NCBI GenBank assembly: GCA_964357925.1
Contig: CAYHMW010000004.1
Span: 1-62,536 of the forward strand
Length of the DNA: 62,536 bases
Reading direction: 5' to 3'
DNA from: an uncultured Gammaproteobacteria bacterium
GTDB lineage: Bacteria; Patescibacteriota; Microgenomatia; UBA8517
Shown here: positions 7,274 through 61,500 of the stretch, in pieces
How positions within the stretch are numbered: the stretch's first letter is position 1
Layout: every line of letters starts with the position of its first letter
The notes under the pieces: generated by a model
What the model saw: the letters and a program-made list of their open reading frames with translations, nothing else
The model's database searches: none
Told to the model about the DNA's origin: nothing
Program-made: the position numbers and the translations under genes

Positions 7274-7284
7274 TCCTCCCTGAT

Positions 7285-7844: not shown

Positions 7845-7941
7845 GCAATGACCTCTAAAAAAGACGGCTACGATAAGGTATACTTCTGATATTCGCACAG
7901 CTGATCGCCAAAGCGACAGCTTAGTACATTTCAGGAGATTC

Positions 7942-31167: not shown

Positions 31168-31392
31168 TCAATCTTGTATCTGAATCCCAAGCATGTAAAG
31201 AACCGCCTCTTTTTTGTAGCGACGATCGCCACGGGAATTGATCCTAATTGGAGGAAGTTTCCCCCGCTTACCCCACCTCTTAATCGTCAACGGAGAAACT
31301 CTCAAAAGATCAGCAACCTCACGTACAGTCAGAAGATCAGGGAGATTCTTCATGTCCACTTGCCTCTTAATCGCTTTGGTATTCATAATCAT
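31168..31392 (-). CDS. excisionase/MerR-type HTH DNA-binding protein
   Basis: LLTVREVADLLRVSPLTIKRWGKRGKLPPIRINSRGDRRY matches the HTH_17/excisionase-like pattern. Confidence 0.75.
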   Translation of the reverse strand: MIMNTKAIKRQVDMKNLPDLLTVREVADLLRVSPLTIKRWGKRGKLPPIRINSRGDRRYKKEAVLYMLGIQIQD

Positions 31393-34308: not shown

Positions 34309-35070
34309 TTAAGTTCTCCTCTCTCTCAGCACCATCCACAGGAAAACTGCAGTTGCCTTCCAAACTCGCTTGTAATGCCCGCCCTCCATCAATAATCTCC
34401 ACAACCACTCTAACCCAAACCTCGCCATAAACTGGGGGGGCAGAGTCTTCGATCCTGCATAATAATCGAGAGCGCCGCCAACGACCATAACTCCACCAAC
34501 TTTAAGTTGGTTGTAATTTCTAGCTACCCACAACTCTTGCTTCGGAGCACCAAAGGCAACAATCAACAAATCCGGACCAAATTTATTGATTCTGTCAACT
34601 ATATCTTTCTCATAACTAAGAGCTAATTTTGTGTCAGGGACGCCATCCCGGCCAATAACAAGTATCCCGTCACCATCAAACTTAGCGCCACCAAATTCCT
34701 TACTGGCTTTATCAACTGCCCAATTGTTTACAGTCGCCGACGCCCCCAGCAAAAAAACTTTTAAATTACGTTTACCTGCAAACTCAAACAACTTGAGCAT
34801 CATCTCCCTACCGGTTATTCGCTCAAGACTACTGTTTATGAGTAATAGTCCAACTCCATCTGGCAATGCTATGTCCGAAGTGTTCAAAGCCTCCAAAAAA
34901 ACAGGATTATCTGTAGACTCCACTATCATTTCAGGGTTCGGAGTTACTATAAAAAATTTACGCCTCAATTTGAGGCTAGACTCCACAAAGTCTAGCACTT
35001 CTCCTACGGAAGTGCTAGATAACTCAACATTTAATATCTTGACGTCTTTACGGGGTTTATTTAGTCTCAT
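34309..35070 (-). CDS. WecB/TagA/CpsF-family glycosyltransferase
   Basis: ...TPNPEM..., ALPDGVGL, FGAPKQELW and LEWLWRL motifs. Start set at the internal ATG (MRLNKPRK), because the upstream extension runs through repeat elements. Confidence 0.8.
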   Translation of the reverse strand: MRLNKPRKDVKILNVELSSTSVGEVLDFVESSLKLRRKFFIVTPNPEMIVESTDNPVFLEALNTSDIALPDGVGLLLINSSLERITGREMMLKLFEFAGKRNLKVFLLGASATVNNWAVDKASKEFGGAKFDGDGILVIGRDGVPDTKLALSYEKDIVDRINKFGPDLLIVAFGAPKQELWVARNYNQLKVGGVMVVGGALDYYAGSKTLPPQFMARFGLEWLWRLLMEGGHYKRVWKATAVFLWMVLRERRT

Positions 35071-35140
35071 AATATTTATTTGAACCTGCTGTGCCCTTCC
35101 GTAGCCTTGGCGAAGGAGGGTCATCTCGCACTTCCCAACT

Positions 35141-35171
35141 GTCATCCCGCACGGAGATGCGGGATCCAGAA
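35141..35171 (+). repeat. 31-nt palindromic element, copy A (intergenic)
   Basis: GTCATCCCGCACGGAGATGCGGGATCCAGAA with hairpin ATCCCGCA-N6-TGCGGGAT. Near-identical copies lie at 48554 and 57602. Confidence 0.85.
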
Positions 35172-46701: not shown

Positions 46702-47469
<768 letters not shown>

Positions 47470-47966
47470 TTACTACTTTTAAACTTGCAAAATGCAACGT
47501 CACAAAATACACCACATATACGGACATAATGTCAATTTACGGAAATAAAATATATTATTGCGGGTATTTCTAAATACTGCGGGTAACGCAAAACATAACT
47601 AACTATTAACCGCATTTTAAGTATACTTGCATGCAGAAAATTACAATATATACAAGAACACCATCCAAGGAACACTAAAGATTGCCAAACAAAACAACTA
47701 CTATTTCTCCTTCACCTAATCAAACCTAAAGGGTCCCAGATCACTTTAAAGTACTGATTCACCCTTATAAAACCCACGCTCAAATTTTATATATTCGATT
47801 TTATTAGCCTGGCAACAGTCGAATCGAATACTCTGCTTAACGACAGAATTTAATTACTGCATCAAACACCATCATAATTTGTGTAGTTACTTAACCGCAA
47901 TCGGTAATTATTTCTGCTTGACTTATGTGTCCAAATTTGGCTTAATGAATATATTAAATTAAGTTC

Positions 47967-47992
47967 AAAGTCCAAGTTAAAAAGTCCAAGTT
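47967..47992 (+). promoter_or_regulatory. 12-nt direct repeat (x2) about 20-45 nt upstream of the giant gene; candidate operator
   Basis: AAAGTCCAAGTT at 47967-47978 and again at 47981-47992. Confidence 0.3.
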
Positions 47993-48013
47993 TTAAATAT
48001 CCGAACTGCCCAA

Positions 48014-51000
48014 ATGACATATCTACCCAACAATACCCAAAACCAACCCTTAAGTATCCATGAAGCATCTGAATTTCTTGGCGTCTCAACTAAAACTCTC
48101 CGAAGGTGGGAAGCAAAAAAAGTTCTCGTCCCTGTTCGTACCGCTGGCGGCCACAGACGCTACAGTTTTAAAAAGCTTGTAGAATTCAAAAACAAAGGCG
48201 CCAAAAGTAAATCAAATACAACCTACGATTCATCAACAATCTTCCCCCCAAGCTTCGACGCACTCCCAACAGTTTCCTACTTCACAAAACCCCTGCCGGA
48301 AACCCAAACGTCGATTGAGCCTGTATTGCTTCCGCATTTAAAACCCCTCGAACCAAGCGAAGTACCAGGGGCAACTGATCTACTCAAAAATGCAATTTCC
48401 GCAACAATATTAACCTCACTCGTAGCCTTAGTCTTGGCTGGATTTTCTATTCTATTTACCGCAGTCAAAATCAACCTACCAAGCATCGGGGATGCGCAGC
48501 CCCGAGGCGATCGGAGTGAGCTTTTCGGGGCCAACCCCAACCAAGAGAACACAGTCATCCCGCACGAAGATGCGGGATCCAGAATTGAAAACGATGTATT
48601 GGCTGCCAGTTCCATTCTCCAAGATGTAAATCTCAACATTAACGTCCCCACAAACATCGATAATAGCTTTCGCGTCAGCGGCGCTTCAACCTTCGATGAC
48701 GACATTGCCTTAAACGGCACAAACGTCACATCTACCCAAGATGAAGTGAATCTCTTCATTGGCACTAGTCCAGGGACGATCAACATCGGCGGTGGAGCTT
48801 CAACCACAAGCATCGGTGGAATTGCAAATCTGGGAGGCAATTCTCTCATCTCCCCTGGCGATCTACTGATTGACCCGGGCGGAGGCGGCGTGTCCATAGG
48901 CACGGGAACTGCAAGTACCATCAATCTGGCAGGAGACGATTTTTTCGTTTCTGGGGACTTCGAAGTTGACGGCTCCCTTGTCGTCGGCAGCGATTCAATT
49001 ACTGACCTCACAGGTTCCGGTCTTCAAGTAAGCTCAGGTGCTCTCCAAGCAACCCTAGGTACCTCAATCACAACCGGCGAAATAGAAAACGACACAATCC
49101 TGGAAGTCGATTTGGATATCACAAACGATCCGACAGACAACTACATTCTAACCTACGATTCGGCAACAGCCGGCTTTACTTGGGTAGCATCAAGTGCCGC
49201 AGTAATCACAATCGAAAACAACGACACAGGGGTAGGCACAGATGTCACGACAATCGACTTCTCAACAGACTTCACAGTTGCAGCTTCCCCAGCAAGTGAA
49301 ACAAACGTTTCCATCGCAGACGATATATTAAGCTTTACAGAATTCAGTGACACCCTGACAGCAGAAGACGGTACAATCCTCGACCTCTCGTCAATCAATC
49401 ATTCAACAACAGCTATTGAAGGTATCAAACTACCGCAAAGTGCTCTCTCAAGCGGCCCGAGTTCTGGTGATGGCTTCTTGGCATTCGACACTGATGATAA
49501 TCAAGTCAAAGTTTGGTACTCTGGTGCCTGGAGCTCAATTGCCGGAGCCTCAACCACCCTCCAACAGTCCTACGCCAATGATGCCGATGGCTCAGACGCA
49601 ATAATCGCCCTTACAGCTGACGACGATTCCATAATCGTAAGAAACCCCAGCTCAAGTGGCACAGACTCTGGATACTTAATGAGCCTTGATCAGCTAAATA
49701 CAGGCAGCGTTGATGCTCTTCAAGTCAGCAATTCCGGCACCGGCGACAGTGTCCAGATAACAAATTCGTCAACTGGTTTAATAATGAACCTCGCGGCTTC
49801 CGGTTCAGGAACTACAGCAGATGGCATATTAATATCTCAAACAGGATCGGGAACGATCACTGACGCAATTGATCTAAGCGATGAAACGATCACAAACGCA
49901 CTAAACATCGGTGCGAATATAATCATAGGAACAACCGCTTCAATCGACTTCACCAACTTTGATGTTGCAACAACAGGTGCAATTACAACAGGTGCAGCAG
50001 GTCAAGATGGCCAACTCGTAATCTACAATGACCTGGCCACTGATAGAAGCATAACGATTAACCCAAGTTCCTCTCAGGGAGCAGACATCACCTATACACT
50101 CCCCCCAGATGATGGTGCAGCTGATAATTATGTGTTAACAACAGATGGCAGTGGAGTTCTCAATTGGGAAGCAGTTACGGGAGCAGGCGCTGTTGATGAG
50201 ACAGGAACAAACACATCCGGCCAAATAGCGTACTTTACAGACGACAACACTCTCACCTCTTCATCGAATTGGGTATTTGTAGACAGTCAAACAACAGGCA
50301 ACACACTCTCAGTAGCTGCAACGACTCTAACCACAGGTAACCTGCTTGATGGAACCGCAACCTATGTCGACGCAACAGGAGGGACAGATAGTGCAATTGA
50401 TATCAATCTAACTAATAATCCAGTAACCAACGCAAACACGCTCCGTGGCTTAGACATTGGTTTCACTGATGCAGGAAGCCTTGCAAACACAATTTATGGG
50501 GTATACATAGATGCAACAACAGCAAACTCTAGTGACACTACATATGCAGGAGTGCTTCTTGGCGGCAACGTAGGAATCAATGATGCCACTCCAGATGCCA
50601 GACTTGAGATTTTAGCTACAACTGAACAACTAAGACTCACCTACACCGACGGTACTGTTGATGCAAGATTTACCGTAGACAGTAGCGGCAATCTCAATAT
50701 AGACGTTACAGGAACCAAGACCATCATAACCGACGATCTTCAGGTAACAGGCAACGACATTCTAAGCTCAAGCGCCACGGCAGCCCTAACATTATCAGGA
50801 ACAGATGTCACAGTAGCAGGTGATTTGACAGTTTCAGGCGGAGACATCATCGGCATCGCAACCACCAATCTCCTAAATACTGCCTCCACAACCATAAACT
50901 TCGCCTCTGCAGCCACCACTCTAAACATGGCAGACGCCGCAATCACAGGGACAATCGATATTGGAGGCGTCACAAGCGATGGCACAAGCACTATAAATAT

Positions 51001-54000
51001 CGCAACAAACGGTGCTGCTAACGCAGATGTTATAACAATTGGTAATTCAAATGCAGGAACAACACTTGCCTTGACAGGTGGAGATGACTGGAATATATCA
51101 ACAACTGGCATACTAACTCTTTCTGCATCAGCTGCACAAACCAGTGCAATAGTGGCCACAGATACCGACTACACAAACTTCGCAGATATCGGCGACAACG
51201 ATATAACAGGGACCACGTTCGATATCATTGGAACAACAGGAACAATTAACTTAACATACTTCGACGTATCGGCAACCGGTGCGATCACAACAGGAGGGGC
51301 CACCCAAGATGGCCAATTTATAATCTACAATGACCTTGCGACAGACCGCACAATCACCATAAACCCAAGCTCCTCCCAGTCTCTAGATATCACCTACACC
51401 CTTCCACCAGATGATGGCGGAGCTGACAATTATGTGTTGACTACAGATAGTACGGGAGTCCTAAACTGGGAAGCTATAACAGGAGCAGGTGGAGTTGGCG
51501 GCTCTGGCACTCAAAACGCGCTAGCCAAATTCACAGTCACTGGCAACACTATTGGAGACTCAAGTATCACCGACGATGGCACTACAGTAACTCTCTCAAC
51601 TGACGTCTCCTTAAGTTTAGGAGCGGGCGAAGAAGTCTCCCTTTCAAACACCGGTGCAAACTCTGATCAACTATCACTCTCCGTATCAGGAGTAACTACA
51701 ACTGGGATTGACGCATTATCACTTTCCTTCACCCAGGCAGACGACATCGACGCAACCGACGACAACGCAGCCGCACGAATCGCACTTACATCCTCCTCCA
51801 CTCAAGCGGATCTCCTATATGGAATCGACTTGGCAAATATCACGGCAGGAGCAGCGACAGAGACCGCTCTAAGAATTGGCTCTGGCTTTGATAATCTATT
51901 CGAACTTGAAGGCTCAACAAATGACGGCATAGAACTATTTGTTCAACTAACAGATCCAACTAGTACCGACAAAACAATAACATTCCCTAACGACACAGGA
52001 ACAGTCTGTCTCAGTTCAGGCAACTGTGCAGGTGGATCAGGAGGCAGTAAATGGACCGATAGTGGTGTAATCACCTACTTCACAGCCTACACAACAGACG
52101 ATGTCGCAATTGGTGATACCACAAGCGCCTCTGAATTCTACTTTGATATTTTGAGCACAGATAGCGGCCAACTATCGATGAACCCAAGCTCAGTTGGAAC
52201 AAAGATCGACATCAATCTTGAAACTGAATGGACTAGCGGGACCCTAATCAACGCAGACTTCGGAAGTAGCACCACACAAGGGGCTGACCTAGACATAACC
52301 GGCTTGGTGCTTAATCTTAATACTAATCTAACCGCAAACGCTGATGCGGACGTGACGGGAATAAATGTCCAAACCCCAGTCTTAACCTCCACAGAAGCCG
52401 TAACTACAAATTACTCTGTATACAATAATTCCGCCTCAGGGGCTCTTACTCAAAACACAGCTGCAGGAACAATTAATTGGCGAGGGCTAAATCTCACTAT
52501 GCCCAATATTACAGCGACGACTGGCACCATTACATCTGATGGCGTCAGAGTAGCAAACGGGACAATCACCACAGGGGGCACACAATCTCTCTTCCATGCC
52601 ATAACAACTGGCGTCGGAGCAGGAACACTTTACGGCCTAAATATTGACGGCATCACAGCAAGTGGTGGCACAGAACAAGCAATCGCTATCGGCGCAGGCT
52701 GGGACACTGACATAAACGCAACAACTTCTCTCGAAATTGGCATCGGTGGAGCCAACGAGTTAACACTAACTGCAACAGCTCTAGCTCCATCGACTGATTC
52801 AGGGCAAGATCTCGGCACCTCAAGTCTTCAATTTGCAGATCTCTATCTTGATGGTGGAAATGTGAATATCGATAACGCAACAGACATTGATATAGATGAC
52901 AATGTATCAGGTGCTCTTTCTATATCACAAGGTACCAATGACTATATAAATATAACAACAACAGACACGACTACTACATTTCTAATTGACATGCCCGTTG
53001 CCGGATCAAGCTCAACCACGGCAAACCTATTCACCTCAAATCTCACAAAAACAATAAATATAGGAACAGGGACAGACGGCGACACAATTAATCTAGGGGA
53101 TGGAACAGGCACAAACGCAATTGATATTGGCGGGGTGGGAAACTCTGGAACAGACACTATAAACATCTCAACCGAAGCTACAGCGTCCGATGTCATTACT
53201 ATTGGCAACTCCCACGCCTCTACAACCCTGGCTCTCACCGGTGGTGATGATTGGAGCATAAGTACGGCTGGGCTCGGCATATTCAGCCAGGTTGGTATAG
53301 GTACCACTGCTCCTGATGCAGCTCTTGAGATTAACCATGCAACAGGAGATAGCTTGAGGTTGACATATAACGATGCAAATGGCTCTGCTGCTGATTACAC
53401 AGACTTCTCTCTAAGTTCAACCGGTGCACTCACCTTGACTGGATCTGCAGCAACACTGGCAGCCAGCGCAACAGCAGAGAAAACATTCTTGACCCTAACC
53501 CCAGGAACAATAACCTTAACCGCTCCAACAGCCGTGACATCTTTGATGGAAACCTCAGTGATAACAGGGGCAACAATTGCAGCAAATGCAGCAACCACAG
53601 TGGATAAGGCAACAACACTGTCTCTGGTAGCACCAATTGACAGTACTAATGCAACACTAACTGCAGACTCAGCTCTCCGAATATTAAATGTAACCTCTGG
53701 TGCAGGTACCCTCACAACTCAGTATGGATTGTTTGTAGAGGACCTAACAGCAGGAGCAAGCGACTACGGCATCTACATTGCAGGCGCTGATACCTACTCT
53801 CTATATACAGCAGCCGGGTCAGTGAGCCATCTCTTTGAAGCAGCAGAAGGCCTTGTCCTCGATTCAGAAGCAACTGATTCAACCGGCACAGCTGGAGTAA
53901 TTGATCTTGATCTTGATGCCACAAGCTCACAGCAAGCCATTAACCTCGATATTGAAACCATAGCTGATGCAGGAGTAGATACTTTGATTGGTTTGGATAT

Positions 54001-57000
54001 ATTAGCAACGCAGACCTCCACAGACGATGATGTCGTCTACGGGATGAGAGTCCAAAACCTCGGAGGGACTCCTGATGCTGGTAACGAATATGGCATCTAC
54101 CAAGCAGGCATAAGCTGGGACTATGGACTATATGTAGAAGATGCAGCACTTTTCAACACAACTGCCGTAATCAACGGAACGTATCTTGGACTTGACTACG
54201 ATGCAGATGCAGGAAATGTAATATCGGTTGGAACCGGGCCCGAACAATCAACAGGGTCGCTATTCTGGGGCAATGACTTACTTTGCGATCCGGCACTAAC
54301 TAACTGCGGCTGGGCAACTTCAGCCAGCTCTCCTTTTACCCAATCAGGAGCTGATCCGAATGAGATTATTGATAAAAGCGATCTTACAGCCAGACTGAGA
54401 CTCCAATATGGTGATGCAGGAGATATCCAACTTGAAATTGACTCAACAAGTAACACAATTGTCCCCACAGCAGATGCGGTCTCGATTGATTTAAGCTCAG
54501 GAGCCACAAACACAGGAATCATAACAGCAGATGTTGATGGACTCTACTTGGTCATGGAAGCAGGTAATATAGTTGCAGATGGAGCAATCTCAGGGGTCCA
54601 CATTAACTTTGATCCAATCACAGGTGGTGGTGCAGGAGATCTGTTCTACGGATTAAACATTGATGGCATCACAGCAACAGGTGCAACTGAGGCAGCCATC
54701 AATATTGGCTCAGGCTGGGATACAGGCATCGCCATTTCATCAGCCATCGCTGGTGAAGCACTTGATCTAACGAGTGTTGCGGGCATCAGGACAACCGCCC
54801 TCATTGATCTCAACGAAAACAATACAACAGGAACTGTTCCAACCATCCAATGGGATAGTGCCGCAGATACCACAAGGGGTGGATTCATGGACATCAACCT
54901 TGCAGGTGCTCTTGCTACTGAAAACTTAATTGACCTAACAACCTCAGCCGCCTGGACCAGTAACCTACTCGATATCAACCTAGGAGCTGGCATCTCAACT
55001 GGCAATGTCATGGATATAACCTTTGGAACTGCAGCCCACACAGGTAATGCCATTGATCTAAACATGGGAACCAATGTGGCAGGCCAAGCCATCGATATTA
55101 ATTTGACAGGTGCAAGGACAGATGACGGCATCAACATTGATGATGATTCAACAGGCAATACTCCCATTCTTGACATGAACATTAGTGGAGTGCGAACGGG
55201 CAATGCCATCGATATTACATATGCAACTGCCGCCGCCACAGAGAATGCCATTGATCTAAATATGGGCACCAATGTGGCAGGAGATGCCATAAACATCAGT
55301 GCCGCCGCTACAACCGGAGATTCAATTGACATTACTCCCGGTGCAGCCAGGACTTCAGGTGCTGCTCTCAAGATTACAGACGGTTCCCTAGCAGCTGCAG
55401 TCACCGACGCCCTCATCCAACTCGACATCACAGGAACATCAGACACCAACAGCCTTGATTTTGACATCTCAGGAGGCAGCGCAGTCTCCGGTAACCAGCT
55501 TGACATCACCTACTCAAGTGCAGCCCACACAGGTAATGCCATTGACCTCAACATGGGCACCAATGTGGCAGGAAACGCTCTTGCCATCGCTACCGCCGGT
55601 ACCACGACTGGCCGCGCTATTGAAATCATTTCTGATGGTACTATTGTGGACTCACTCATCGATGTGGATATGAATTCGGGTGATTGGCAAGGCAACATTT
55701 TGGAAGTCACCACCGGCGGCTCTGCTTCTGACGGTGACGTGTTTAACATTACTTTGGAAGCTCTCGATGTTGCTGTACAAAATATGGTGGTAACAAACGC
55801 CGCCGCTACAACTGCAGCAGGATGGCTCATGGATGTCGATACTTCAGCTGCCTGGACTGGCATTGCCATGGATATTGATATTGCTGGTGCCGTCATCTCA
55901 ACTGGTAACTTCCTGGATGTCACCTACTCAAGTGGAGCTCACACAGGTAATGCATTCGACTTAAACATGGGTACAAACGTGGCAGGTAATGCAATTGACA
56001 TAGCAACTGCAGCCACAACTGGTAATGCAATCGACATAACAACAACCGGGGTCTTCACCAACGAACTCATCGATATCAATGTAGGAGCCAATGCTGCCAC
56101 AGGCGATGTAATTAATATAGATATGGGCTCAACGGCCACTGGTGCCCAAGCCTTTGTTCTAACTAACACCTCAGCCTCAACAGTCAACCAAGTTGACTTA
56201 ACAGCCAACTCACTCGTTAGTGGCAATCTAATTGACCTAAACTCCACCTCAACAGGGCTAACAACAGGAAGCTTCATATCATCGTCATTCACAGGTAATT
56301 CAACCTTCACTGGAGACCTAAACTACTTTGAATGGGCACCAACCACCTCGACAACTGCCAGTGGCGATATCTTCCAAATAAACATCGGTACAAGTGGCAC
56401 CACAACAGGCAAGCTTTTCCGTGTCAGCGATACAGGCAGTGACTTATTCGCCATAAGCGAGACAACTATCACAAGCGCTCTTCCTCACGAATTCACAGCC
56501 GCAGGAGACCTAAGCGTCGCCTACGATATCGCCTTTACAAATCAGACAGCCAGCTACATCAAATCAAACGGCCCAGTAACAATCGAGGCAGGCGAGTCTT
56601 TTGAGAGCAATAACCTTACACTCAAAACCTACAACTCAGGCGATATCGTCTTTGACGTTCCAGCAACCGGAACAGCAATTGTACAGGGAGCATTCTCAGT
56701 TGATTCTCAACAAACTTTAACTGCGAATAGTACCACTCCCTCAGTTGCTGCCGGTTCGCACTTTATAACTGCAAATACCTCTGATCCTACTCTTATATCT
56801 AATTTTACAAGTGGAACCACAGGTCAAATGATTTTCGTTGAAGCGGGGGATGCAGTAACAGATTTTGATTGTACTGCTTCTAGTCTGAACTGCGGCAATG
56901 CAGATATTACCGCAGTTACTGCTGGAGACACATTCAATTTTATATACGATGGAACCAATTGGAACATGATTAGCTGGATAGATAACGGCACCAGCTATGC

Positions 57001-58111
57001 CACCGGCGGCGCAGATTTAGCAGAGCTATTCGTTAGCTACATTCCTCTGGTCCCAGGCGAAATTGTGAAAGTCGATCCAGACAACGACAAACAAATTGTC
57101 CCAACTAACTCAAGCTATGACCACTCAGCTGTAGGGGTTGTATCAACAGCTCCCGGAATCACTCTAGGCACGGAGACCGAAGGGAAAACAAACTATGCCA
57201 TAGCCCTCGCAGGCCGCGTCCCCGCCAGGATCGCCGAAAACTCAGAACCAATCAGAAAAGGCGACTTTATTGCTACATCAAATGAAGTTGGACGTGCAAT
57301 GAAGGCAACTTCCCAGGGCAATGTAATCGGTACCGCTATGGAAGACTGGACCCCGGGATCCGGCCAAGACAAGATCGTCATGTTCATAAACAACAGTTAC
57401 GCCAATCCAAACCCAGCCCCCGCAGATTCGGGCAGTGTCATCCCGGACCCGGATCCGGGATCTGAAACATTGGTATCAGACGTTGAGTCCCTTGAAAGTC
57501 GTGTCACCCTCCTCGAAGACCAACTCGACATATTCTTGAGCACAACCCTCAACACACCAGTCGCCACTGATTCGGGAACAGCAACATCATCCGGAAATAT
57601 TGTCATCCCGCACGAAGATGCGGGATCTGGAAGCTTCGAGAAGCTGACCACGACTGACCTGTCTGTCTCAGGAGATGCAGTCCTTGGGGATGTCACAATC
57701 ACAGGTAATCTCAACATCGGTACGCTATCAGTTGACGGTTTTGGCAATTCTATTGATGCAATAGGAACATTGGCCATCCAACCACTGGCCCTAGGCAACA
57801 TCGAGTTCTTGGGAGGCCTCATAACCTTTGATACAGATGGCAACATAGTGGCCAAAACTATTGAGGTAGAAAAGATCTCAATCAAAGGCGATTCAGCCGG
57901 CATTGGTGCAATTCCAGAAGGTGAAAACGAAGCCTACATCGCCACAGATCAAGTCACAACAGACTCACTAATATTAGTAACACCAACAAGCGGCACCCGC
58001 TATCCATTGGTCGTAGCCACCAAAGAGCCAGGCCTCGGCTTCACCGTTCAAATCCCAGTGGCACCACTCTCAGACATTAATTTTGATTGGTTAATTGTGG
58101 ACAAACGATAG
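48014..58111 (+). CDS. giant (3365 aa) surface protein: N-terminal MerR/excisionase-like HTH, one TM, a long repetitive T/S/G/A/D/N-rich ectodomain and a C-terminal globular region
   Basis: Uninterrupted ORF. HTH LSIHEASEFLGVSTKTLRRWEAKKVLVPVRTAGGHRRY (aa 13-50). TM AISATILTSLVALVLAGFSILFTAV (aa about 127-151). Multiple long internal repeats. Confidence 0.85.
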   Translation: MTYLPNNTQNQPLSIHEASEFLGVSTKTLRRWEAKKVLVPVRTAGGHRRYSFKKLVEFKNKGAKSKSNTTYDSSTIFPPSFDALPTVSYFTKPLPETQTSIEPVLLPHLKPLEPSEVPGATDLLKNAISATILTSLVALVLAGFSILFTAVKINLPSIGDAQPRGDRSELFGANPNQENTVIPHEDAGSRIENDVLAASSILQDVNLNINVPTNIDNSFRVSGASTFDDDIALNGTNVTSTQDEVNLFIGTSPGTINIGGGASTTSIGGIANLGGNSLISPGDLLIDPGGGGVSIGTGTASTINLAGDDFFVSGDFEVDGSLVVGSDSITDLTGSGLQVSSGALQATLGTSITTGEIENDTILEVDLDITNDPTDNYILTYDSATAGFTWVASSAAVITIENNDTGVGTDVTTIDFSTDFTVAASPASETNVSIADDILSFTEFSDTLTAEDGTILDLSSINHSTTAIEGIKLPQSALSSGPSSGDGFLAFDTDDNQVKVWYSGAWSSIAGASTTLQQSYANDADGSDAIIALTADDDSIIVRNPSSSGTDSGYLMSLDQLNTGSVDALQVSNSGTGDSVQITNSSTGLIMNLAASGSGTTADGILISQTGSGTITDAIDLSDETITNALNIGANIIIGTTASIDFTNFDVATTGAITTGAAGQDGQLVIYNDLATDRSITINPSSSQGADITYTLPPDDGAADNYVLTTDGSGVLNWEAVTGAGAVDETGTNTSGQIAYFTDDNTLTSSSNWVFVDSQTTGNTLSVAATTLTTGNLLDGTATYVDATGGTDSAIDINLTNNPVTNANTLRGLDIGFTDAGSLANTIYGVYIDATTANSSDTTYAGVLLGGNVGINDATPDARLEILATTEQLRLTYTDGTVDARFTVDSSGNLNIDVTGTKTIITDDLQVTGNDILSSSATAALTLSGTDVTVAGDLTVSGGDIIGIATTNLLNTASTTINFASAATTLNMADAAITGTIDIGGVTSDGTSTINIATNGAANADVITIGNSNAGTTLALTGGDDWNISTTGILTLSASAAQTSAIVATDTDYTNFADIGDNDITGTTFDIIGTTGTINLTYFDVSATGAITTGGATQDGQFIIYNDLATDRTITINPSSSQSLDITYTLPPDDGGADNYVLTTDSTGVLNWEAITGAGGVGGSGTQNALAKFTVTGNTIGDSSITDDGTTVTLSTDVSLSLGAGEEVSLSNTGANSDQLSLSVSGVTTTGIDALSLSFTQADDIDATDDNAAARIALTSSSTQADLLYGIDLANITAGAATETALRIGSGFDNLFELEGSTNDGIELFVQLTDPTSTDKTITFPNDTGTVCLSSGNCAGGSGGSKWTDSGVITYFTAYTTDDVAIGDTTSASEFYFDILSTDSGQLSMNPSSVGTKIDINLETEWTSGTLINADFGSSTTQGADLDITGLVLNLNTNLTANADADVTGINVQTPVLTSTEAVTTNYSVYNNSASGALTQNTAAGTINWRGLNLTMPNITATTGTITSDGVRVANGTITTGGTQSLFHAITTGVGAGTLYGLNIDGITASGGTEQAIAIGAGWDTDINATTSLEIGIGGANELTLTATALAPSTDSGQDLGTSSLQFADLYLDGGNVNIDNATDIDIDDNVSGALSISQGTNDYINITTTDTTTTFLIDMPVAGSSSTTANLFTSNLTKTINIGTGTDGDTINLGDGTGTNAIDIGGVGNSGTDTINISTEATASDVITIGNSHASTTLALTGGDDWSISTAGLGIFSQVGIGTTAPDAALEINHATGDSLRLTYNDANGSAADYTDFSLSSTGALTLTGSAATLAASATAEKTFLTLTPGTITLTAPTAVTSLMETSVITGATIAANAATTVDKATTLSLVAPIDSTNATLTADSALRILNVTSGAGTLTTQYGLFVEDLTAGASDYGIYIAGADTYSLYTAAGSVSHLFEAAEGLVLDSEATDSTGTAGVIDLDLDATSSQQAINLDIETIADAGVDTLIGLDILATQTSTDDDVVYGMRVQNLGGTPDAGNEYGIYQAGISWDYGLYVEDAALFNTTAVINGTYLGLDYDADAGNVISVGTGPEQSTGSLFWGNDLLCDPALTNCGWATSASSPFTQSGADPNEIIDKSDLTARLRLQYGDAGDIQLEIDSTSNTIVPTADAVSIDLSSGATNTGIITADVDGLYLVMEAGNIVADGAISGVHINFDPITGGGAGDLFYGLNIDGITATGATEAAINIGSGWDTGIAISSAIAGEALDLTSVAGIRTTALIDLNENNTTGTVPTIQWDSAADTTRGGFMDINLAGALATENLIDLTTSAAWTSNLLDINLGAGISTGNVMDITFGTAAHTGNAIDLNMGTNVAGQAIDINLTGARTDDGINIDDDSTGNTPILDMNISGVRTGNAIDITYATAAATENAIDLNMGTNVAGDAINISAAATTGDSIDITPGAARTSGAALKITDGSLAAAVTDALIQLDITGTSDTNSLDFDISGGSAVSGNQLDITYSSAAHTGNAIDLNMGTNVAGNALAIATAGTTTGRAIEIISDGTIVDSLIDVDMNSGDWQGNILEVTTGGSASDGDVFNITLEALDVAVQNMVVTNAAATTAAGWLMDVDTSAAWTGIAMDIDIAGAVISTGNFLDVTYSSGAHTGNAFDLNMGTNVAGNAIDIATAATTGNAIDITTTGVFTNELIDINVGANAATGDVINIDMGSTATGAQAFVLTNTSASTVNQVDLTANSLVSGNLIDLNSTSTGLTTGSFISSSFTGNSTFTGDLNYFEWAPTTSTTASGDIFQINIGTSGTTTGKLFRVSDTGSDLFAISETTITSALPHEFTAAGDLSVAYDIAFTNQTASYIKSNGPVTIEAGESFESNNLTLKTYNSGDIVFDVPATGTAIVQGAFSVDSQQTLTANSTTPSVAAGSHFITANTSDPTLISNFTSGTTGQMIFVEAGDAVTDFDCTASSLNCGNADITAVTAGDTFNFIYDGTNWNMISWIDNGTSYATGGADLAELFVSYIPLVPGEIVKVDPDNDKQIVPTNSSYDHSAVGVVSTAPGITLGTETEGKTNYAIALAGRVPARIAENSEPIRKGDFIATSNEVGRAMKATSQGNVIGTAMEDWTPGSGQDKIVMFINNSYANPNPAPADSGSVIPDPDPGSETLVSDVESLESRVTLLEDQLDIFLSTTLNTPVATDSGTATSSGNIVIPHEDAGSGSFEKLTTTDLSVSGDAVLGDVTITGNLNIGTLSVDGFGNSIDAIGTLAIQPLALGNIEFLGGLITFDTDGNIVAKTIEVEKISIKGDSAGIGAIPEGENEAYIATDQVTTDSLILVTPTSGTRYPLVVATKEPGLGFTVQIPVAPLSDINFDWLIVDKR
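48554..48584 (+). repeat. 31-nt palindromic element, copy B (in frame, encodes VIPHEDAGS)
   Basis: GTCATCCCGCACGAAGATGCGGGATCCAGAA, with the hairpin at 48557-48578. Confidence 0.85.
57602..57632 (+). repeat. 31-nt palindromic element, copy C (in frame, encodes VIPHEDAGS)
   Basis: GTCATCCCGCACGAAGATGCGGGATCTGGAA, with the hairpin at 57605-57626. Confidence 0.85.
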
Positions 58112-58117
58112 TTTGTC

Positions 58118-58134
58118 AAATTTTCAATTTTCAA
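58118..58134. repeat. left arm of a 17-nt perfect inverted repeat flanking the four-helix-bundle gene
   Basis: AAATTTTCAATTTTCAA is the reverse complement of 58569-58585. Additional ATTTTCAA octamers lie nearby. Confidence 0.8.
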
Positions 58135-58158
58135 AACTCAATTTTCAATCAAATTAAA

Positions 58159-58530
58159 ATGAATAAAAACCAAAACAGTAAATACGATCTCGAAGAACGA
58201 ACTGCAAAATTAGCCGAAGATATCATTACCCTTGTCAAAAAAGTAAAGGCCAACCACATTAACAAAAGAATAATATCCCAACTTGTCGGAAGTGGAGGTT
58301 CCTTAGGAGCGAACTATTGTGAAGCAAATGAAGCTGAAAGCAAAAGAGATTTTATACACAAAATAGGCATCTGTAAAAAAGAGACAAAAGAAACTAAACA
58401 TTGGTTAAGATTATTGGCAACCTCAAACCCTGAAATTAAAGACAGCCTAAAGTTGATCTGGAAAGAAACCCATGAGTTACTATTAATCTTTAGCAAAATA
58501 AAAGAAAATGCTAAACAAACAAAACATTGA
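58159..58530 (+). CDS. four-helix-bundle protein (23S rRNA intervening-sequence protein family)
   Basis: YDLEERTAKLAEDIITLVKKV...QLVGSGGSLGANYCEANEAESKRDFIHKIGICKKETKETKHWLRLL matches the family pattern. Start set at the ATG at 58159. Confidence 0.8.
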   Translation: MNKNQNSKYDLEERTAKLAEDIITLVKKVKANHINKRIISQLVGSGGSLGANYCEANEAESKRDFIHKIGICKKETKETKHWLRLLATSNPEIKDSLKLIWKETHELLLIFSKIKENAKQTKH

Positions 58531-58535: not shown

Positions 58536-61500
58536 ATGAAATTTAAAAGTTCATTGAAAATTGGTGGCTTGAAAATTGAAAATTTACACATAAAAACTTA
58601 CGTTGCCCTTGGTCTCATCCTCATCCTCTCCCCAATCATCTTGTTTGGAATCTTTAAACCCAAAGGAGCAGAAGCTGAATGGTTTGATGATAGTTACTCA
58701 TACAGACAAAGGTTCAGCTTTACCCACAATGCAACAATATCGGCAGAACGCGCCATTACAGTTACCTTTGACAATGCAGAGATGATCACAGACACTGTAA
58801 TGCAGAGTGACTGTGATGATGTGCGCTTTACTGATATCAATGGCAAGGTACTTCTTCACGATTTAACAAGTACTTGTAATAACGCATCAGCAACGTATGA
58901 GGTAATCTTCAACTCAATTATAAATGGTACAAATGTAGGATTCATCTACTACGGAAACCCCAGCGCAGTGAATGCTGAAGTAGACTCAACAGTCTACACT
59001 GCCCTAACGCCCTCAGGCGGTGACCCAGCAGCCATTACAAACCGCACAAATGAAACCAAAGGCCCAGGCCCTATAGGTTGGTGGAAATTTGATGAAGGAG
59101 TAGACAATACCTGTAGTGGTGGAACAAATGATGTATGCGATAGTACACCAGGTGCCAACAATGGCGCCATGACAGGGGGCACAACCTGGAAAACCAATGA
59201 TTTCTGCATCTCCGGTAACTGCGTCCAATTCGACGGCATCAACGACGATATCGTCCTCACAGACAACGATCAACTGGACATGGGCACCGGATCATTTACC
59301 ATACAATACTGGATGAAGCACACCAGCACCTTTGGCGAATGGATACTCAGGAAAAACGAGACCGTAGGCGCTGATGGAGGATACGGATTTGACATCCGAA
59401 GCGACGGAGATATCCATTTTGGTATCACGGATCAAGCGGGATTTCCGAGAGACGCCGCGGAGTCCGCGTTTAACGACAACAGGTGGCACGACGACGCCTG
59501 GCACTTCGTCGTCGGAGTCAGAAACGGATCGACAAGCCTTCTCCTGTATGTTGATGGCGTGGAAGTCGCATCTGACCTAAGTATATCGACATCCACCACC
59601 ATTTCCAACGACGATCCGCTCTATTTCGGTCAAAACGGGTCAAACGGAAATTACTTTGTCGGCATGCTGGACGAAATCAAGATGTACAAGTATGCACGGT
59701 CAGCGGCCCAGATCAAAAACGACTATATCCGATACACAAGTTCCGAAGGACTATCGGCAGCGATAGGTACCAAGAGTCAATCGCCACTGGCGGACGGCCT
59801 CCAAGGATATTGGCCCATGAACGAGACAGGCACTACCGCACCGGTCGACTATTCCAATAATGGCAATGATCTGCTCAGGAGAAATACTCCCACTATGGCA
59901 GCAGCAAAGTACGCCAACGGAGCAGACCTTGAAAGCGCGAGTACGACATACTTCTCACGCTCTGATGACTCCACGTTCTCCATCACCGGCGATCTCTCCA
60001 TAGCCACCTGGATCAAGCCGGAGTCCAATACAGCGTCCACGCAGTACAACATCGTCGCCAAGATGGATGGCGCCAACGATAGCTATGCCTTGGTCCAATA
60101 CGGCGACGAGCTAAGAATGTACATTGATTCAGAATCCGACTACGCCACAACTGACTCGACAAACCTGGCAACAGGTACCTGGTACCATGTACTGGGCACG
60201 TATGATGCCAGCGCACAAGAAATAAAAATCTATGTCAACGGTATCTCACAAGCGGTAACCGTCACCGGTACGATACCCACATCCATAGGTGATGACACCG
60301 GAGTTTTTCATGTCGGCGCACAGGACCATACCACAACACCGATCAACTCCTATGACGGCTTCATCGATGACGTACGTTTCTACAGCCGGACTCTCTCTCA
60401 AGACGACGTAAACATGCTCTACAACTGGGCCCCAAGACCCATCGGCTATTGGCCACTAGATGAGAATACTGGTTCCACAACAACGGATCGTTCTGGAAAT
60501 TCCTACGCAACTTCCATGGACAGTTTCACAGGTGATGGGTCGGACTGGGTACCAGGCAAATACGGATCAGCTCTCAACTTCGATGGTACAAATGATGAAA
60601 TTACGATTACAGACGGTGCAAGCTTTTCCACAAACACATATTCAATATCTGCCTGGGTATACCGCACAAGTGACAGTGGCACAAATGAGGTAGTCTTTGA
60701 TAACCGGGATGCACTCGACGACGGCACGAGAATAATTGTGGATGGAGATCTCGACAGACTCAGATGTACATATAACGCAACCAATACATCAACGGCCACT
60801 AGCTCAATATCGACTGGAATTTGGTACCACGTTGCGTGCACATCTGACGGTACAACCCAAACAACATACTTAAATGGCATAAAAATCAATTCAGACGCAA
60901 TCACAGGGAGCATTGCTGAAACGACAAATGCCGTAATTGGTGGCCAAAGCTACTCCGCAGGGAATAACTTCCCGGGCAACATAGACGATGTAAGGATCTA
61001 CAACTACCCCCGCACCCCAGGACAAATAGTGGAAGACATGAACGCCGGCCACCCCCTCGGCGGCTCCCCCATTGGAACCCAAACTATTTACTGGAAATTT
61101 GATGAGCAGTATGGAACAGGGTCGGGCGCTGCTAAAGATTCGATAGGCAATGAAAACGGCGACATCGATGCCTCTGCCAGCTGGCTCACACAAAACTCAT
61201 GTAAATTCAATGGCTGCCTACTCTTTGACGCGGCAGGAGAAGAAGTCTTAATAACAGATGCCAACGATACCGATATCAATTTCAACGGCAGTGAACCATT
61301 TTCTGGATCAGCATGGGTATACGTAACGACAATGCCGGGAGCCTCAGACGAGGATGCCATAATTGCAAAATGGGATGAATCAGCCGGAGCCGAAAAAAGA
61401 GCTTACAGAATGTACATAACAGACGCAGATGGTGATTCAGCTGCAAATCTCGTGGCAGAAGTATACGACGAATCGGCAAACCAAGCACTCTCTGCCGCAA

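Follow-up and report, generated by a model that had tools for sequence, protein, structure and literature searches.

The window, a 62.5-kb stretch of DNA from a tiny Microgenomates (Patescibacteria) bacterium, contains a 10-kb gene whose product combines an N-terminal helix-turn-helix (HTH) domain, a flexible linker, one transmembrane (TM) helix and a huge ectodomain in a single polypeptide, the architecture proposed in the first-pass annotation. The gene, its upstream region, its divergent neighbour and a second HTH gene of the window are laid out as follows.

31168..31392, minus strand: stand-alone HTH_17/BldC-like protein, 74 aa
46702..47460, minus strand: p252, conserved divergent neighbour, with a signal peptide, a beta domain of about 100 aa and two C-terminal TM helices
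47918..47947, plus strand: inferred sigma-70-type promoter (-35 TTGACT at 47918-47923, 18-nt spacer, -10-like TTAATG at 47942-47947)
47928..47938, minus strand: operator-like site 1, AAATTTGGACA, within the -35/-10 spacer, fitting the family consensus AAAnTTGGACA
47969..47979, minus strand: operator-like site 2, TAACTTGGACT, part of the first AAAGTCCAAGTT repeat
47983..47993, minus strand: operator-like site 3, AAACTTGGACT, second AAAGTCCAAGTT repeat, 14 bp from site 2
48006..48013, plus strand: CTGCCCAA, immediately 5' of the start codon, without a Shine-Dalgarno sequence
48014..58111, plus strand: whole gene for the HTH-TM-fibre protein, 3365 aa
48050..48205, plus strand: BldC-like minimal MerR-type winged HTH, aa 13-64 (Pfam, AF2, Foldseek)
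48206..48379, plus strand: disordered, probably cytoplasmic linker, K-rich and then P/S/T-rich, aa 65-122 (pLDDT < 50)
48380..48469, plus strand: single TM helix or signal anchor, aa ~123-152 (hydrophobicity, AF2)
48470..58108, plus strand: probable extracytoplasmic fibre region, aa 153-3365 (composition, Cys pairs, BLASTP against the family)
56894..58108, plus strand: conserved, phage-fibre-like C-terminal module, aa 2961-3365
57047..57349, plus strand: beta domain, aa ~3012-3112, homologous to the p252 ectodomain (BLASTP 31% identity, E 2e-8)

An in-frame TAA stop lies at 47978, 12 codons upstream of ATG 48014, which is the only start codon 5' of the HTH. Between the HTH and the TM helix there is one further start codon, TTG at codon 105 (48326). 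Initiation downstream of the HTH, raised as a concern in the first-pass annotation, can be rejected, since within the aligned N-terminal 330 residues nothing is conserved as well as the HTH. A broader suspicion is that a small HTH gene was joined in silico to that of a giant secreted protein, or that TTG codon 105 is the true start. That codon does precede the TM helix, and ATG 48014 has no Shine-Dalgarno sequence. However, about 75 independent assemblies, drawn from several studies and species, show the identical in-frame layout, and TTG codon 105 is not conserved, the linker alignment being gapped there. The chance of an artefact of either kind is negligible, and this explanation can be regarded as effectively refuted by conservation of the HTH together with recurrence of the layout.

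Of 73 family loci, 42 have the sequence CTGCC no more than 13 nt from the ATG, and just four have an SD-like motif. The leader CTGCCC is both unusual and conserved.

Whether an N-terminal HTH plus TM helix recurs in giant proteins of relatives, a survey proposed in the first-pass annotation, can be answered in the affirmative. An HTH, a linker of 19 to 135 aa and a single TM helix are present in 101 of 152 proteins, nearly all of the 152 having come from an exhaustive HMMER search, and at about 75 of 80 genome loci (GTDB species). Among the 101, 23 are longer than 1000 aa and five longer than 3000 aa. The layout is distributed over Woesebacteria, Levybacteria, Shapirobacteria and other Microgenomates, in proteins of up to 4594 aa. 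Complete ORFs in relatives reach 3524, 3516 and 3483 aa, and many others of more than 3400 aa run past the end of the stored locus. This recurrence excludes a chance fusion of HTH and TM helix. Many relatives carry two to eight tandem copies of the HTH. At 66 loci, tblastn detected a p252 homologue upstream of the HTH gene and divergent from it; no Pfam family matched p252. Public records automatically name homologues of 2000 to 4600 aa 'MerR family DNA-binding transcriptional regulator', a database habit that the fibre finding corrects.

Recognition of a MerR/excisionase-type HTH at the N terminus held up against profiles, all of them above curated cut-offs. Residues 13-61 score 46.9 bits with MerR (PF00376; cut-off 28.2), 40.0 with MerR_1 (21.6) and 33.0 with HTH_17 (27). 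In the AF2 model (pLDDT 84-92 over aa 11-60), helices at 15-22 and 26-34 are followed by a beta hairpin at 41-50 and a helix at 52-64, which is the MerR-type arrangement of helix-turn-helix, beta-hairpin wing and further helix. The best Foldseek match was BldC bound to DNA (6amk_A; target-normalised TM-score 0.76, rmsd 1.6 A), with CarH-DNA and RacA-DNA (5i44) also near the top; all top matches are MerR-like winged-HTH complexes with DNA. Sequence matches in the PDB were a CarH/LitR-type protein and BldC. Of 20 invariant columns in a 12-sequence family alignment, 15 fall in the HTH, other regions being about 35% identical.

The likeness to BldC extends to the DNA-contacting surface. Nine contact side chains have been described for BldC (PMC5859096), and seven are identical here and invariant in the 12-sequence alignment: K27, T28, R31, W32, H47, R48 and R49, corresponding to BldC K26, T27, R30, W31, H46, R47 and R48. 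In BldC, K26 and R30 contact bases, T27 and W31 contact phosphates, and H46, R47 and R48 belong to the wing (PMC5859096). The two remaining phosphate contacts of BldC, T29 and K33, are replaced by R30 and A34, and R22, a residue of the head-to-tail salt bridge, by G23. From profiles, model and alignment, the domain is best described as a minimal BldC-like winged HTH. BldC itself (Streptomyces, 68 aa; PDB 6AMK/6AMA; PMC5859096) likewise consists of the winged HTH alone, without the coiled coil or effector domain of MerR. It differs in being free in the cytoplasm and in serving a developmental regulon, whereas the fibre HTH is covalently held on the membrane and attached to a 3200-aa ectodomain.

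Several narrower assignments were considered and rejected. Membership of the small stand-alone BldC family does not fit a score of 29.7 bits with the NCBIfam model NF033787 (cut-off 77 bits) or the presence of a TM helix and some 3200 further residues in the same polypeptide. A canonical MerR regulator (MerR, CueR, BmrR, SoxR) would carry a coiled coil or effector domain, and here a K-rich stretch and the disordered linker follow residue 64; NCBIfam equivalogs such as CueR and HspR scored far under their cut-offs. A ToxR/CadC-like receptor, which would carry an OmpR/PhoB-type winged HTH (Trans_reg_C), is contradicted by the MerR-type domain and the lack of a Trans_reg_C match in Pfam.

The stand-alone HTH protein encoded at 31168..31392 had been said to resemble the fibre HTH closely. 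It is a real relative, although at 36% identity over 47 aa (BLASTP, E 1e-8) the resemblance is only moderate and that wording was somewhat generous. Read from the sequence, it has no equivalents of BldC K26 and H46.

The linker is unconserved in the 12-sequence alignment and disordered in the AF2 model (residues 64-118), and its median length in the family is 63 aa. The first-pass annotation gave its length as about 70 aa, which is nearer 60. The single TM helix placed at residues 127-151 was essentially correct: AF2 gives a helix at 120-152, and the sole hydrophobic segment of the whole protein lies at residues 123-158 (19-residue Kyte-Doolittle window > 1.6), the same scan revealing no N-terminal hydrophobic segment or signal sequence.

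In the family, the 15 residues before the TM helix contain 3.25 K+R on average and the 15 after it 1.99; the N-terminal flank is the richer one in 105 of 149 proteins and the poorer in 19 (Wilcoxon p = 7e-16). Net charge before the TM helix averages +11 in the family and is +6 in the fibre protein itself. As the flanks of the window's own TM helix are neutral (one K+R on each side), the orientation is judged from the family bias and the N-terminal charge of +6. These suggest that the protein is probably of type II (N-in), in agreement with the cytoplasmic position earlier given to the HTH.

More than 3200 residues follow the TM helix, as had been counted. They are rich in T, G, A, D and S, contain 1.9% K+R and include three CxxxxxC cysteine pairs; the scarcity of K and R and the paired cysteines also speak for the N-in topology. 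A conserved membrane-proximal base, reaching to about residue 500, is followed by a variable stalk and a conserved C-terminal module. No Pfam domain, adhesin domains included, was detected in the fibre region; the adhesin role in the earlier label 'adhesin-like fibre' is a putative one, and the C-terminal module resembles the trimerisation modules of phage fibres or tailspikes. This module is conserved through the last residue in family members of 460 to 3679 aa (BLASTP). Among 11 aligned homologues, the module matches Peptidase_G2 in four (best E 4.6e-10) and K1-lyase_C in six (2.7e-8); that of the window protein gave no Pfam match at E ≤ 0.1. AF2 predicts two confident beta domains. Foldseek matched the model, at marginal E values of about 1e-3, to tailspike C-termini and to cement and head-fibre proteins of phages that are trimeric, which weakly supports trimerisation of the module. 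Phage tail fibres and tailspikes (phi29 gp12-type Peptidase_G2, K1-lyase_C, gpD/cement fold) end in C-terminal intramolecular chaperone or cement-like domains. Phage-type fibres with a chaperone module assemble as trimers and release the chaperone by autoproteolysis, steps that would be putative for the fibre protein. In contrast to these, the fibre protein is cellular and membrane-anchored, has a cytoplasmic HTH, and its own module is sub-threshold in Pfam.

The putative family promoter consists of CTTGACA, a spacer of 17 to 18 nt and TTAATA or TTAATG, about 100 nt 5' of the ATG, CTTGACA being present in 39 of 73 upstream regions (p = 3e-47). A simple consensus scan of the window did not call the fibre-gene promoter because its -10 element deviates. 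The AAAGTCCAAGTT direct repeats pointed out in the first-pass annotation are present at 47967-47978 and 47981-47992, and they hold two of the three copies of a motif common to the family in this window. Of 73 upstream regions of 150 bp, 57 contain TTGGACA or TGTCCAA, as do 190 of 6742 chunks of background (Fisher p = 3e-70). At least two TTRGACA sites were found in 46 of 63 target intergenic regions compared with nine of 201 others, and six of those nine are mis-binned targets. Exact matches to AAANTTRGAC number two in the 62.5-kb window, both in the fibre-gene promoter.

The sites are also phased. In family promoters the first site begins 33-34 or 44-48 nt past the -35 element, and in most of them the sites lie just past the -10 element. 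Fifteen pairs are direct repeats at exactly 10 bp and 23 are inverted at 18 to 22 bp. The arrangement in the window is atypical for the family, with three minus-strand sites, 14-bp spacing and one site inside the promoter spacer. Canonical MerR regulators use a palindromic operator in an over-long spacer of 19 to 20 bp; the spacer that holds one site in the window has 18 nt.

BldC binds head-to-tail to direct repeats, with TGTCCGAATT as the optimised repeat and AATTNNNN(C) as the site rule (PMC5859096). The family consensus AAAnTTGGACA shares with both a GGACA core and an AT-rich 5' flank, and the candidate AAnTTGGAC sites and the 15 direct repeats at 10 bp fit the BldC rule. AAAnTTGGACA is a newly found, family-specific promoter motif and a putative BldC-like operator. 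Differences from BldC are that it lacks the inverted-pair mode used by many fibre-gene promoters, and that the candidate sites of the fibre gene are mainly in its own promoter. A test for covariation of HTH residues with the G/A variant of the operator was uninformative because the recognition helix hardly varies, an invariance imposed in part by the scan pattern.

Rather than a DNA operator, inverted TTGGACA...TGTCCAA pairs could be an RNA hairpin of the 5' UTR that governs translation or mRNA stability. Convergent sites with a loop of 6 to 16 nt occur in 27 promoters and, provided that the promoter is correctly placed, would be part of the transcribed leader. An RNA hairpin is nevertheless very improbable. 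Direct-repeat arrangements (12 promoters with two sites in tandem, 11 with two in tandem and a third inverted, others with three or more in tandem, and three minus-strand sites in the window) are commoner than an inverted pair alone (14). Furthermore, there is no R/Y covariation, with A-C mismatches in six of 27 pairs against 7.3 expected under independence, and the 'n' position is complementary in just 12 of 27.

The reading that we lean towards, with somewhat better than even confidence, is that the fibre protein is a membrane-tethered autoregulator of its own gene. The tethered HTH would bind the three AAAnTTGGACA copies within and just past its own promoter (47928-47993), so that the membrane-inserted product feeds back on transcription of a very costly gene. 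We infer this binding from the co-occurrence of HTH and motif and from the likeness to BldC. Repression is the most likely sign of the feedback because the sites surround the -10 element and the predicted start site. Clustered HTHs, brought together by fibre oligomerisation or, in relatives, by tandem copies, may bind two to three phased sites cooperatively, as BldC multimerises on direct repeats; arrays of two to eight HTHs fit such multi-site binding.

A point against autoregulation is that the soluble BldC-like protein encoded at 31168..31392 could bind the candidate sites instead, or possibly compete for them. If so, the fibre HTH could be vestigial or a protein-protein adaptor, the motif being read by another factor such as the 74-aa protein. 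RodZ offers the model for an adaptor. In it, as in the fibre protein, an N-terminal cytoplasmic HTH, here of Xre type (HTH_25), is joined through a linker to one TM helix and an external domain; the RodZ HTH binds MreB and not DNA. HTH_25 is also the second commonest DNA-binding domain in a census of transmembrane regulators (PMC10269533). Such a soluble HTH is encoded in the window, and co-occurrence alone cannot assign the reader of the motif. However, both residues that contact bases in BldC, and five of its seven further DNA-contact residues, are invariant in the family, the soluble protein lacks equivalents of K26 and H46, the tandem arrays mirror multi-site DNA binding, and the motif is specific to promoters of genes with a fibre-type HTH. 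RodZ differs, too, in its HTH class (HTH_25), in having no cognate promoter motif and in its small external domain. An adaptor or vestigial HTH is therefore quite improbable.

The HTH might bind DNA in order to keep either the fibre-gene locus or the whole chromosome on the membrane. In cis, this could tie transcription and translation of the 10-kb gene to Sec insertion of its product (transertion); alternatively, it could be a RacA-like nucleoid anchor. In-cis binding is physically plausible because the HTH is the first segment to leave the ribosome and the sites are no more than 90 bp from the start codon of the gene, and the gene has the unusual conserved CTGCCC leader and no Shine-Dalgarno sequence. 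RacA of Bacillus subtilis, a pole-anchoring protein whose MerR-like winged HTH (5i44) ranks with the closest folds, connects DNA with the cell envelope, and the fibre HTH gives weak NCBIfam matches to it. RacA is soluble, has a coiled coil and depends on DivIVA to reach the membrane; as a symmetric dimer it binds many GC-rich, origin-proximal sites. The fibre protein, unlike RacA, has a direct TM anchor and AT-rich candidate sites at one promoter. RacA uses an Arg equivalent to BldC R30 for its YpG contact (PMC5859096).

Tethering of DNA as the function is improbable, since binding to sites that overlap the core of the promoter and the start region is expected to affect initiation anyway. RacA-type anchoring would require many sites around the origin, whereas the fibre-gene motif is concentrated at one promoter, and there is no coiled coil in the model and no DivIVA-type partner. 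The specific assignment as a RacA-type anchor was rejected (no coiled coil in AF2, motif at one promoter, NCBIfam RacA E 0.06-0.13).

The first-pass annotation favoured a relay from surface contact to transcription, in which the HTH is a contact-responsive regulator and does more than copy-number feedback. The fibre would sense contact with a host or surface, or its own assembly, and signal through regulated intramembrane proteolysis that frees the HTH or through load-dependent clustering. The architecture and the operator evidence speak for such a relay as they do for autoregulation, and the conserved distal module of the huge ectodomain suits ligand or host binding. Proteolytic activation has a precedent in transmembrane regulators such as CadC (PMC11484849). 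At least one other secreted-protein gene has the same promoter-operator layout (locus L075, 5668-5684, upstream of a 727-aa ORF), which hints at a small regulon. However, neither a protease site nor a partner protease or a sensing domain was identified, the linker shows no conservation, and paired sites outside the own promoter are rare (about three of 201 other intergenic regions, two of the three seemingly fortuitous). A signal relay is an unlikely alternative. The one-component, membrane-tethered part of the earlier proposal fits the own-promoter motif; the restriction of the sites essentially to that promoter favours autoregulation over a wider relay.

A distinctly doubtful elaboration is a 'fibre-to-gene' device for mechanosensing or assembly sensing. 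Three HTHs would be gathered when the fibre trimerises through its phage-like C-terminal chaperone module, or parted or released when a host is engaged, and the two to three phased sites, at the own promoter and a few secreted-protein genes, would read this state. Attachment and transcription would be linked directly in one protein, the nascent N terminus holding the 10-kb gene at the translocon in cis.

In its general form the architecture is known. No characterised example was found, in keeping with the first-pass annotation, but transmembrane transcription regulators (TTRs) as a generic class are established (PMC10269533). A census of 50,302 TTRs includes 386 with MerR, 350 with MerR_1 and 151 with HTH_17 (PMC10269533), and Patescibacteria are absent from its text and from the supplementary files consulted. 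TTRs such as ToxR, TcpP, CadC and PsaE combine a cytoplasmic DNA-binding domain, TM segments (mostly single-pass) and an external domain in one polypeptide and regulate from the membrane. A DNA-binding domain and at least one TM segment are likewise found in the single polypeptide of the fibre protein and are conserved in its family. Characterised TTRs have an OmpR-type winged HTH and small periplasmic sensors of about 100 to 250 aa, and none has a BldC-type domain or a fibre of several thousand residues. The best reading of the sequence is that the fibre protein is a variant of the TTRs that would control transcription while membrane-bound, and the upstream repeats, as copies of a family-wide BldC-like operator motif, fit such a one-component regulator.

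Giant surface proteins with a proposed role in attachment have been described in Vampirococcus (PMC8080830) and among the giant genes of Omnitrophota (bioRxiv 10.1101/2023.11.21.568195). These are likewise very large, membrane-associated and fibre-forming, in small-celled, host-dependent bacteria. Their N-termini are given as signal peptides or peptidase domains (PMC8080830; bioRxiv 10.1101/2023.11.21.568195). The terms 'helix-turn-helix' and 'MerR' are absent from both main texts, as are 'HTH' from that of PMC8080830 and 'DNA-binding' from that of bioRxiv 10.1101/2023.11.21.568195.

A giant surface fibre joined to a BldC-type domain is thus encoded by a lineage-wide gene, at a conserved position in most matching species genomes, and a concrete cis-element, the AAAnTTGGACA repeats of its own promoter, has been gained. 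Patescibacteria, including Microgenomates, are ultra-small, mostly uncultured and host-dependent, and few regulators can be recognised in them. The gene may bear on how these bacteria detect hosts and attach to them. If the proposed regulation is true, the TTRs would gain a new DNA-binding fold and ectodomains ten times the size of any yet studied, and the multimerisation mode of BldC would have a tethered version. The operator, the HTH and the conserved partner p252 would then provide an entry point to surface-to-genome signalling, or to control of the cost of giant proteins, in CPR bacteria.

The giant surface protein of the window is encoded by the following gene:

48014..58111 (+): giant ORF, 3365 open codons

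An in-frame TAA at 47978 lies 12 codons 5' of the ATG at 48014, which is the sole ATG, GTG or TTG before the helix-turn-helix (HTH) region; the next candidate start is the TTG at codon 105. The HTH reported in the first-pass annotation was borne out, as residues 13-61 matched three Pfam models above their curated thresholds (MerR, 46.9 bits, threshold 28.2; MerR_1, 40.0 bits, threshold 21.6; HTH_17, 33.0 bits, threshold 27). Beyond the HTH, the full protein had no match in Pfam, NCBIfam, PHROGs or PDB sequence searches, and by sequence comparison its ectodomain fits no named family in these collections. An exact-sequence look-up of the protein found no database record.

A single TM helix had also been claimed. 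Residues 123-158 form the sole stretch with hydropathy above 1.6 (19-residue window), and in an AlphaFold2 model of the N-terminus, built with 11 homologues, residues 120-152 are helical. The winged HTH (wHTH) was modelled at pLDDT 84-92 (helices 15-22, 26-34 and 52-64; hairpin 41-50), residues 64-118 are disordered, and the model of residues 153-330 has low confidence. In the part after the TM helix, T (15%), G and A (11% each) and D and S (9% each) are abundant, and K+R is just 1.9%. An HTH-linker-TM-fibre architecture is very probable. Three CxxxxxC cysteine pairs (residues 1332/1338, 2091/2098 and 2953/2960) are present.

A word-indexed search for homologues with residues 1-200 gave six matches and was too insensitive, so an exhaustive HMMER search with residues 1-330 was used instead (1255 proteins at E ≤ 1e-3; 96 at E ≤ 1e-10). 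The 152 proteins analysed were nearly all drawn from it. An HTH was present in 148, and 101 had at least one HTH, then a linker of 19 to 135 residues (median 63), then a TM helix; the 47 HTH proteins with no TM helix, mostly < 200 aa, may be fragments. HTH-TM proteins reach 4594 aa (23 > 1000, 13 > 2000 and 5 > 3000 aa). Public names of homologues are 'MerR family DNA-binding transcriptional regulator' (RJR15965.1, 2815 aa; QQG47494.1, 2228 aa) or 'hypothetical protein'. Two HTH copies occur in 59 proteins and up to eight in single proteins; in such relatives, P0007 (623 aa), P0040, P0044 and P0081 among them, the tandem arrays precede the TM helix.

Scanning one genome from each GTDB species gave 80 loci, the named ones belonging to Candidatus Woesebacteria, Levybacteria/Levyibacteriota, Shapirobacteria, Microgenomates and 'Patescibacteria group'. 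Many are third-party assemblies titled 'uncultured Gammaproteobacteria', which we take to be a placeholder name. About 75 of the 80 loci have an HTH ORF with one TM helix at residues 72-230 that then reads on. Complete ORFs of this kind encode 3524, 3516, 3483, 1094, 1083, 741 and 720 aa, and many more exceed 3400 aa before leaving the 10-kb flank examined. The N-terminal HTH plus TM, whose recurrence in related genomes the first-pass annotation had left to a survey, does therefore recur, and the HTH-fibre genes form a conserved family rather than a peculiarity of the window's genome. Set beside this recurrence, an artefact of annotation or assembly is extremely improbable.

A 12-sequence N-terminal alignment has 20 invariant columns, 15 of them in the HTH (K27, T28, R30, R31, W32, E33, P40, R42, T43, G45, G46, H47, R48, R49 and Y50). 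This contradicts a downstream start with an unconserved HTH. The linker is unalignable, and conservation returns past the TM helix (VLAATSF-N--F-VNV...).

The N-terminal region of the family has a mean net charge of +11. In 149 members, K+R in the 15 residues flanking the TM helix averaged 3.25 on the N side versus 1.99 on the C side, the N side being greater in 105 proteins and smaller in 19 (Wilcoxon p = 7e-16). The giant protein itself has neutral flanks (K+R 1 versus 1) and an N-terminal region of +6, and a hydropathy scan found no hydrophobic segment N-terminal of residue 123. Given the family charge bias and the lack of a preceding hydrophobic segment, an N-in topology, which would place the HTH in the cytoplasm, is supported but unproven.

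PDB sequence matches of the HTH were a CarH/LitR-type protein (8jbs), BldC (6amk, 6ama) and TnrA. In Foldseek the top matches were BldC-DNA complexes (6amk_A, target-normalised TM-score 0.76, rmsd 1.6 Å over 48 columns), followed by CarH-DNA, RacA-DNA, SoxR, GlnR/TnrA and mycobacteriophage Xis. As neither a coiled coil nor an effector domain follows the wHTH, the giant protein is not a canonical MerR regulator; its HTH is a minimal BldC-like module. By analogy, the tandem HTH arrays of relatives would be a covalent counterpart of BldC multimers.

BldC contacts bases through K26 and R30 and phosphates through T27, T29, W31 and K33, and places the wing residues H46, R47 and R48 in the AT-rich minor groove (PMC5859096). 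On the alignment of the PDB sequence search, seven of these nine residues are identical in the giant protein (K27, T28, R31, W32, H47, R48 and R49), all seven invariant in the 12-sequence alignment, whereas T29 and K33 are replaced by R30 and A34. A role for the HTH as a protein-protein adaptor is decidedly improbable. The stand-alone soluble HTH protein of 74 aa (31168..31392, - strand), said earlier to resemble the HTH closely, proved to be a genuine relative with moderate likeness only (36% identity over 47 residues, E 1e-8). In contrast to BldC it has L and D in place of K26 and H46.

The main new result is a candidate operator, recognized from sequence, at the family's own promoters. The pattern was first read by eye in the 120 nt upstream of 24 loci and then counted family-wide. 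Its recurrent order is CTTGACA, 17-18 nt, TTAATA, and then TTGGACA and/or TGTCCAA. TTGGACA/TGTCCAA was found in 57 of 73 upstream 150-bp regions versus 190 of 6742 background chunks (Fisher p = 3e-70), an enrichment greater than that of the -35 box itself. At least two TTRGACA sites were found in 46 of 63 target intergenic regions versus 9 of 201 others from the same loci, and six of these nine were targets mis-binned by ORF calling. The first site starts 33-34 or 44-48 nt from the start of the -35 element, and so directly after the -10 element. Neighbouring sites form 15 direct pairs at exactly 10 bp and 23 convergent pairs at 18-22 bp, and 151 sites give the extended consensus AAAnTTGGACA. 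In the window the corresponding elements, with the promoter assigned from family conservation only and not called in a consensus promoter scan, are:

47918-47923: -35 element of the inferred promoter, TTGACT, followed by 18 nt
47942-47947: -10 element of the inferred promoter, TTAATG
47928-47938 (- strand motif): operator-like site 1, within the -35/-10 spacer
47969-47979 (- strand motif): operator-like site 2
47983-47993 (- strand motif): operator-like site 3, 14 bp from site 2

Sites 2 and 3 are the upstream direct repeats, AAAGTCCAAGTT, already picked out in the first-pass annotation. Exact AAANTTRGAC has only two matches in the 62.5-kb window, both in the giant gene's promoter. DNA tethering or transertion, in which the HTH would hold DNA at the membrane, is improbable.

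The convergent pairs could instead form an RNA hairpin in the 5' UTR. At variable positions there is no covariation, A-C mismatches occurring in 6 of 27 pairs versus 7.3 expected, and fewer promoters have a single convergent pair than have direct repeats among their sites. Because compensatory covariation is absent and direct repeats are common, the hairpin was rejected as the main explanation of the inverted pairs and is very improbable. The family motif resembles the known BldC site. The optimised site is TGTCCGAATTGTCCGAATTG and the site rule AATTNNNN(C), in which R30 recognises the C-G pair (PMC5859096). Its reverse complement, CAATTCGGACA, has the GGACA core and AT-rich 5' flank of the family motif, and 10-bp direct-repeat phasing is common to both. 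The motif would be read by the giant protein's HTH, presumably not by the soluble one. No HTH position was associated with the G/A variant of the operator at p < 0.01, in an uninformative test since the recognition helix is near-invariant and KTLRRWE was imposed by the scan pattern.

Of three non-target intergenic regions with paired sites, two (L011 and L055) were rejected as further targets; their sites are probably chance, since they have no A-rich flank and lie inside ATP-synthase gene clusters. In a Shapirobacteria genome (L075), a different gene, ORF 5834-8017, encoding a 727-aa secreted protein, lies downstream of the same layout, a -10 element and then two TTRGACA sites in direct orientation with 10-bp spacing (5668-5684); this gene is a possible second regulon member. 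A TTGCGGTTA-like element 5' of the -35, seen by eye in three loci, was not general (2 of 72) and was dropped. Between -300 and -95 from the ATG, 5' of the promoter or in the spacer, GTGAAAA (31 of 72) and TGAGGCTAA-like k-mers (20 of 72) are enriched; the window has TTAGCCT at about 47805-47811. Just 4 of 73 family loci have an SD-like motif, and CTGCC(C)A(A) directly 5' of the ATG is conserved in 42 of 73 (48006-48013 in the window), a possible leader or translation-initiation element of an unusual kind.

The N-terminal 400-500 and C-terminal ~400 residues are conserved across the family, even in members of 460-1000 aa, and the middle is variable. Among 11 C-terminal modules of homologues, four matched Pfam Peptidase_G2 (best E 4.6e-10), an intramolecular-chaperone autoproteolytic domain, and six matched K1-lyase_C (best E 2.7e-8); the window's own module had no Pfam match. 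Its model has two confident beta domains resembling trimeric phage cement/head-fibre proteins and tailspike/pyocin-fibre C-termini, with marginal E values of ~1e-3. From the homologue matches and the phage-like folds, a trimeric phage-fibre-like filament is a reasonable inference, not established. Contact with such a fibre, or its proteolysis, might trigger signalling to the HTH, a reading we consider unlikely.

By eye, the stalk contains a long internal duplication (residues ~655-735 and 1095-1175; FDVATTGAITTG...YVLTTDGSGVLNWEAVTGAG, twice). Residues 1743-2048 (306 aa) are 76% identical to part of homologue P0041, far above the family average, which suggests cassette exchange. A palindromic element (core CCCGCACGAAGATGCGGG, ~31 bp with flanks) has three copies in the window versus 0.02 expected:

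48559-48576: in frame, near one end of the giant ORF, encoding VIPHEDAGS
57607-57624: in frame, near the other end, encoding VIPHEDAGS
35146-35163: intergenic, abutting upstream the start of ORF 34309..35145 (-)

The palindrome may be a mobile hairpin element of small size, or else a signal for recombination or processing that brackets the ectodomain.

A divergent neighbour accompanies the HTH gene:

46702..47460 (-): p252, with a signal peptide, a ~100-aa beta domain and two TM helices (C-terminal hairpin)

A p252 homologue lies upstream of the HTH gene on the opposite strand in 66 loci, and the beta domain of p252 is homologous (E 2e-8) to the giant protein's residues 3012-3112. Pfam and PDB sequence searches gave no match to p252. 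The hairpin has a weak likeness to ATP synthase subunit c (NCBIfam E 0.09), but its second TM helix has no acidic residue. p252 leads a same-strand run of iPGM, atpF-like, atpH, atpA, atpG and atpD genes, with no a or c subunit gene evident beside it. A second secreted protein of very large size (58536-62534, +, > 1333 aa), whose ORF passes the window end, is set off from the fibre gene by a small gene for a 23S rRNA intervening-sequence protein (within ORF 58087-58530). Besides a signal peptide, this second protein carries five Laminin_G_3 (concanavalin-like) repeats (378 bits) and matches DUF2341 weakly. It lacks an HTH, and inspection by eye showed no operator motif upstream of its gene. 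A PEGA-domain protein (36482-37699, +, 405 aa) is a predicted envelope protein.

Characterised transmembrane regulators (ToxR, TcpP, CadC and PsaE) have OmpR-type domains and small sensor domains, whereas the giant protein combines a BldC-type domain with a giant ectodomain. Transmembrane transcription regulators are a described class, with MerR 386, MerR_1 350 and HTH_17 151 of 50,302 in one census (PMC10269533), whose main text and supplementary files, as far as available, do not mention Patescibacteria. 'Helix-turn-helix' and 'MerR' are absent from the main texts of two papers that deal with giant proteins in CPR and predatory bacteria (PMC8080830; bioRxiv 10.1101/2023.11.21.568195), and full-text literature searches, with most subscription journals outside their reach, found no description of an HTH-TM-fibre family. 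Within this class, a member that joins a BldC-type domain to a giant phage-fibre-like ectodomain, has a defined candidate operator and is conserved across Microgenomates appears to be new.

The architecture noticed in the first-pass annotation is confirmed as a whole, and its interpretation stands in part, a membrane-tethered regulator being likely. The reading with most support, somewhat favoured, is that of a BldC-type autoregulator tethered to the membrane. Once inserted, fibre molecules would display their HTHs on tethers of ~60 residues and bind the phased sites at their own gene's promoter, with avidity supplied by oligomerisation of the fibre or, in relatives, by their tandem HTH copies. 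Such binding would limit further synthesis of the 3365-residue product.
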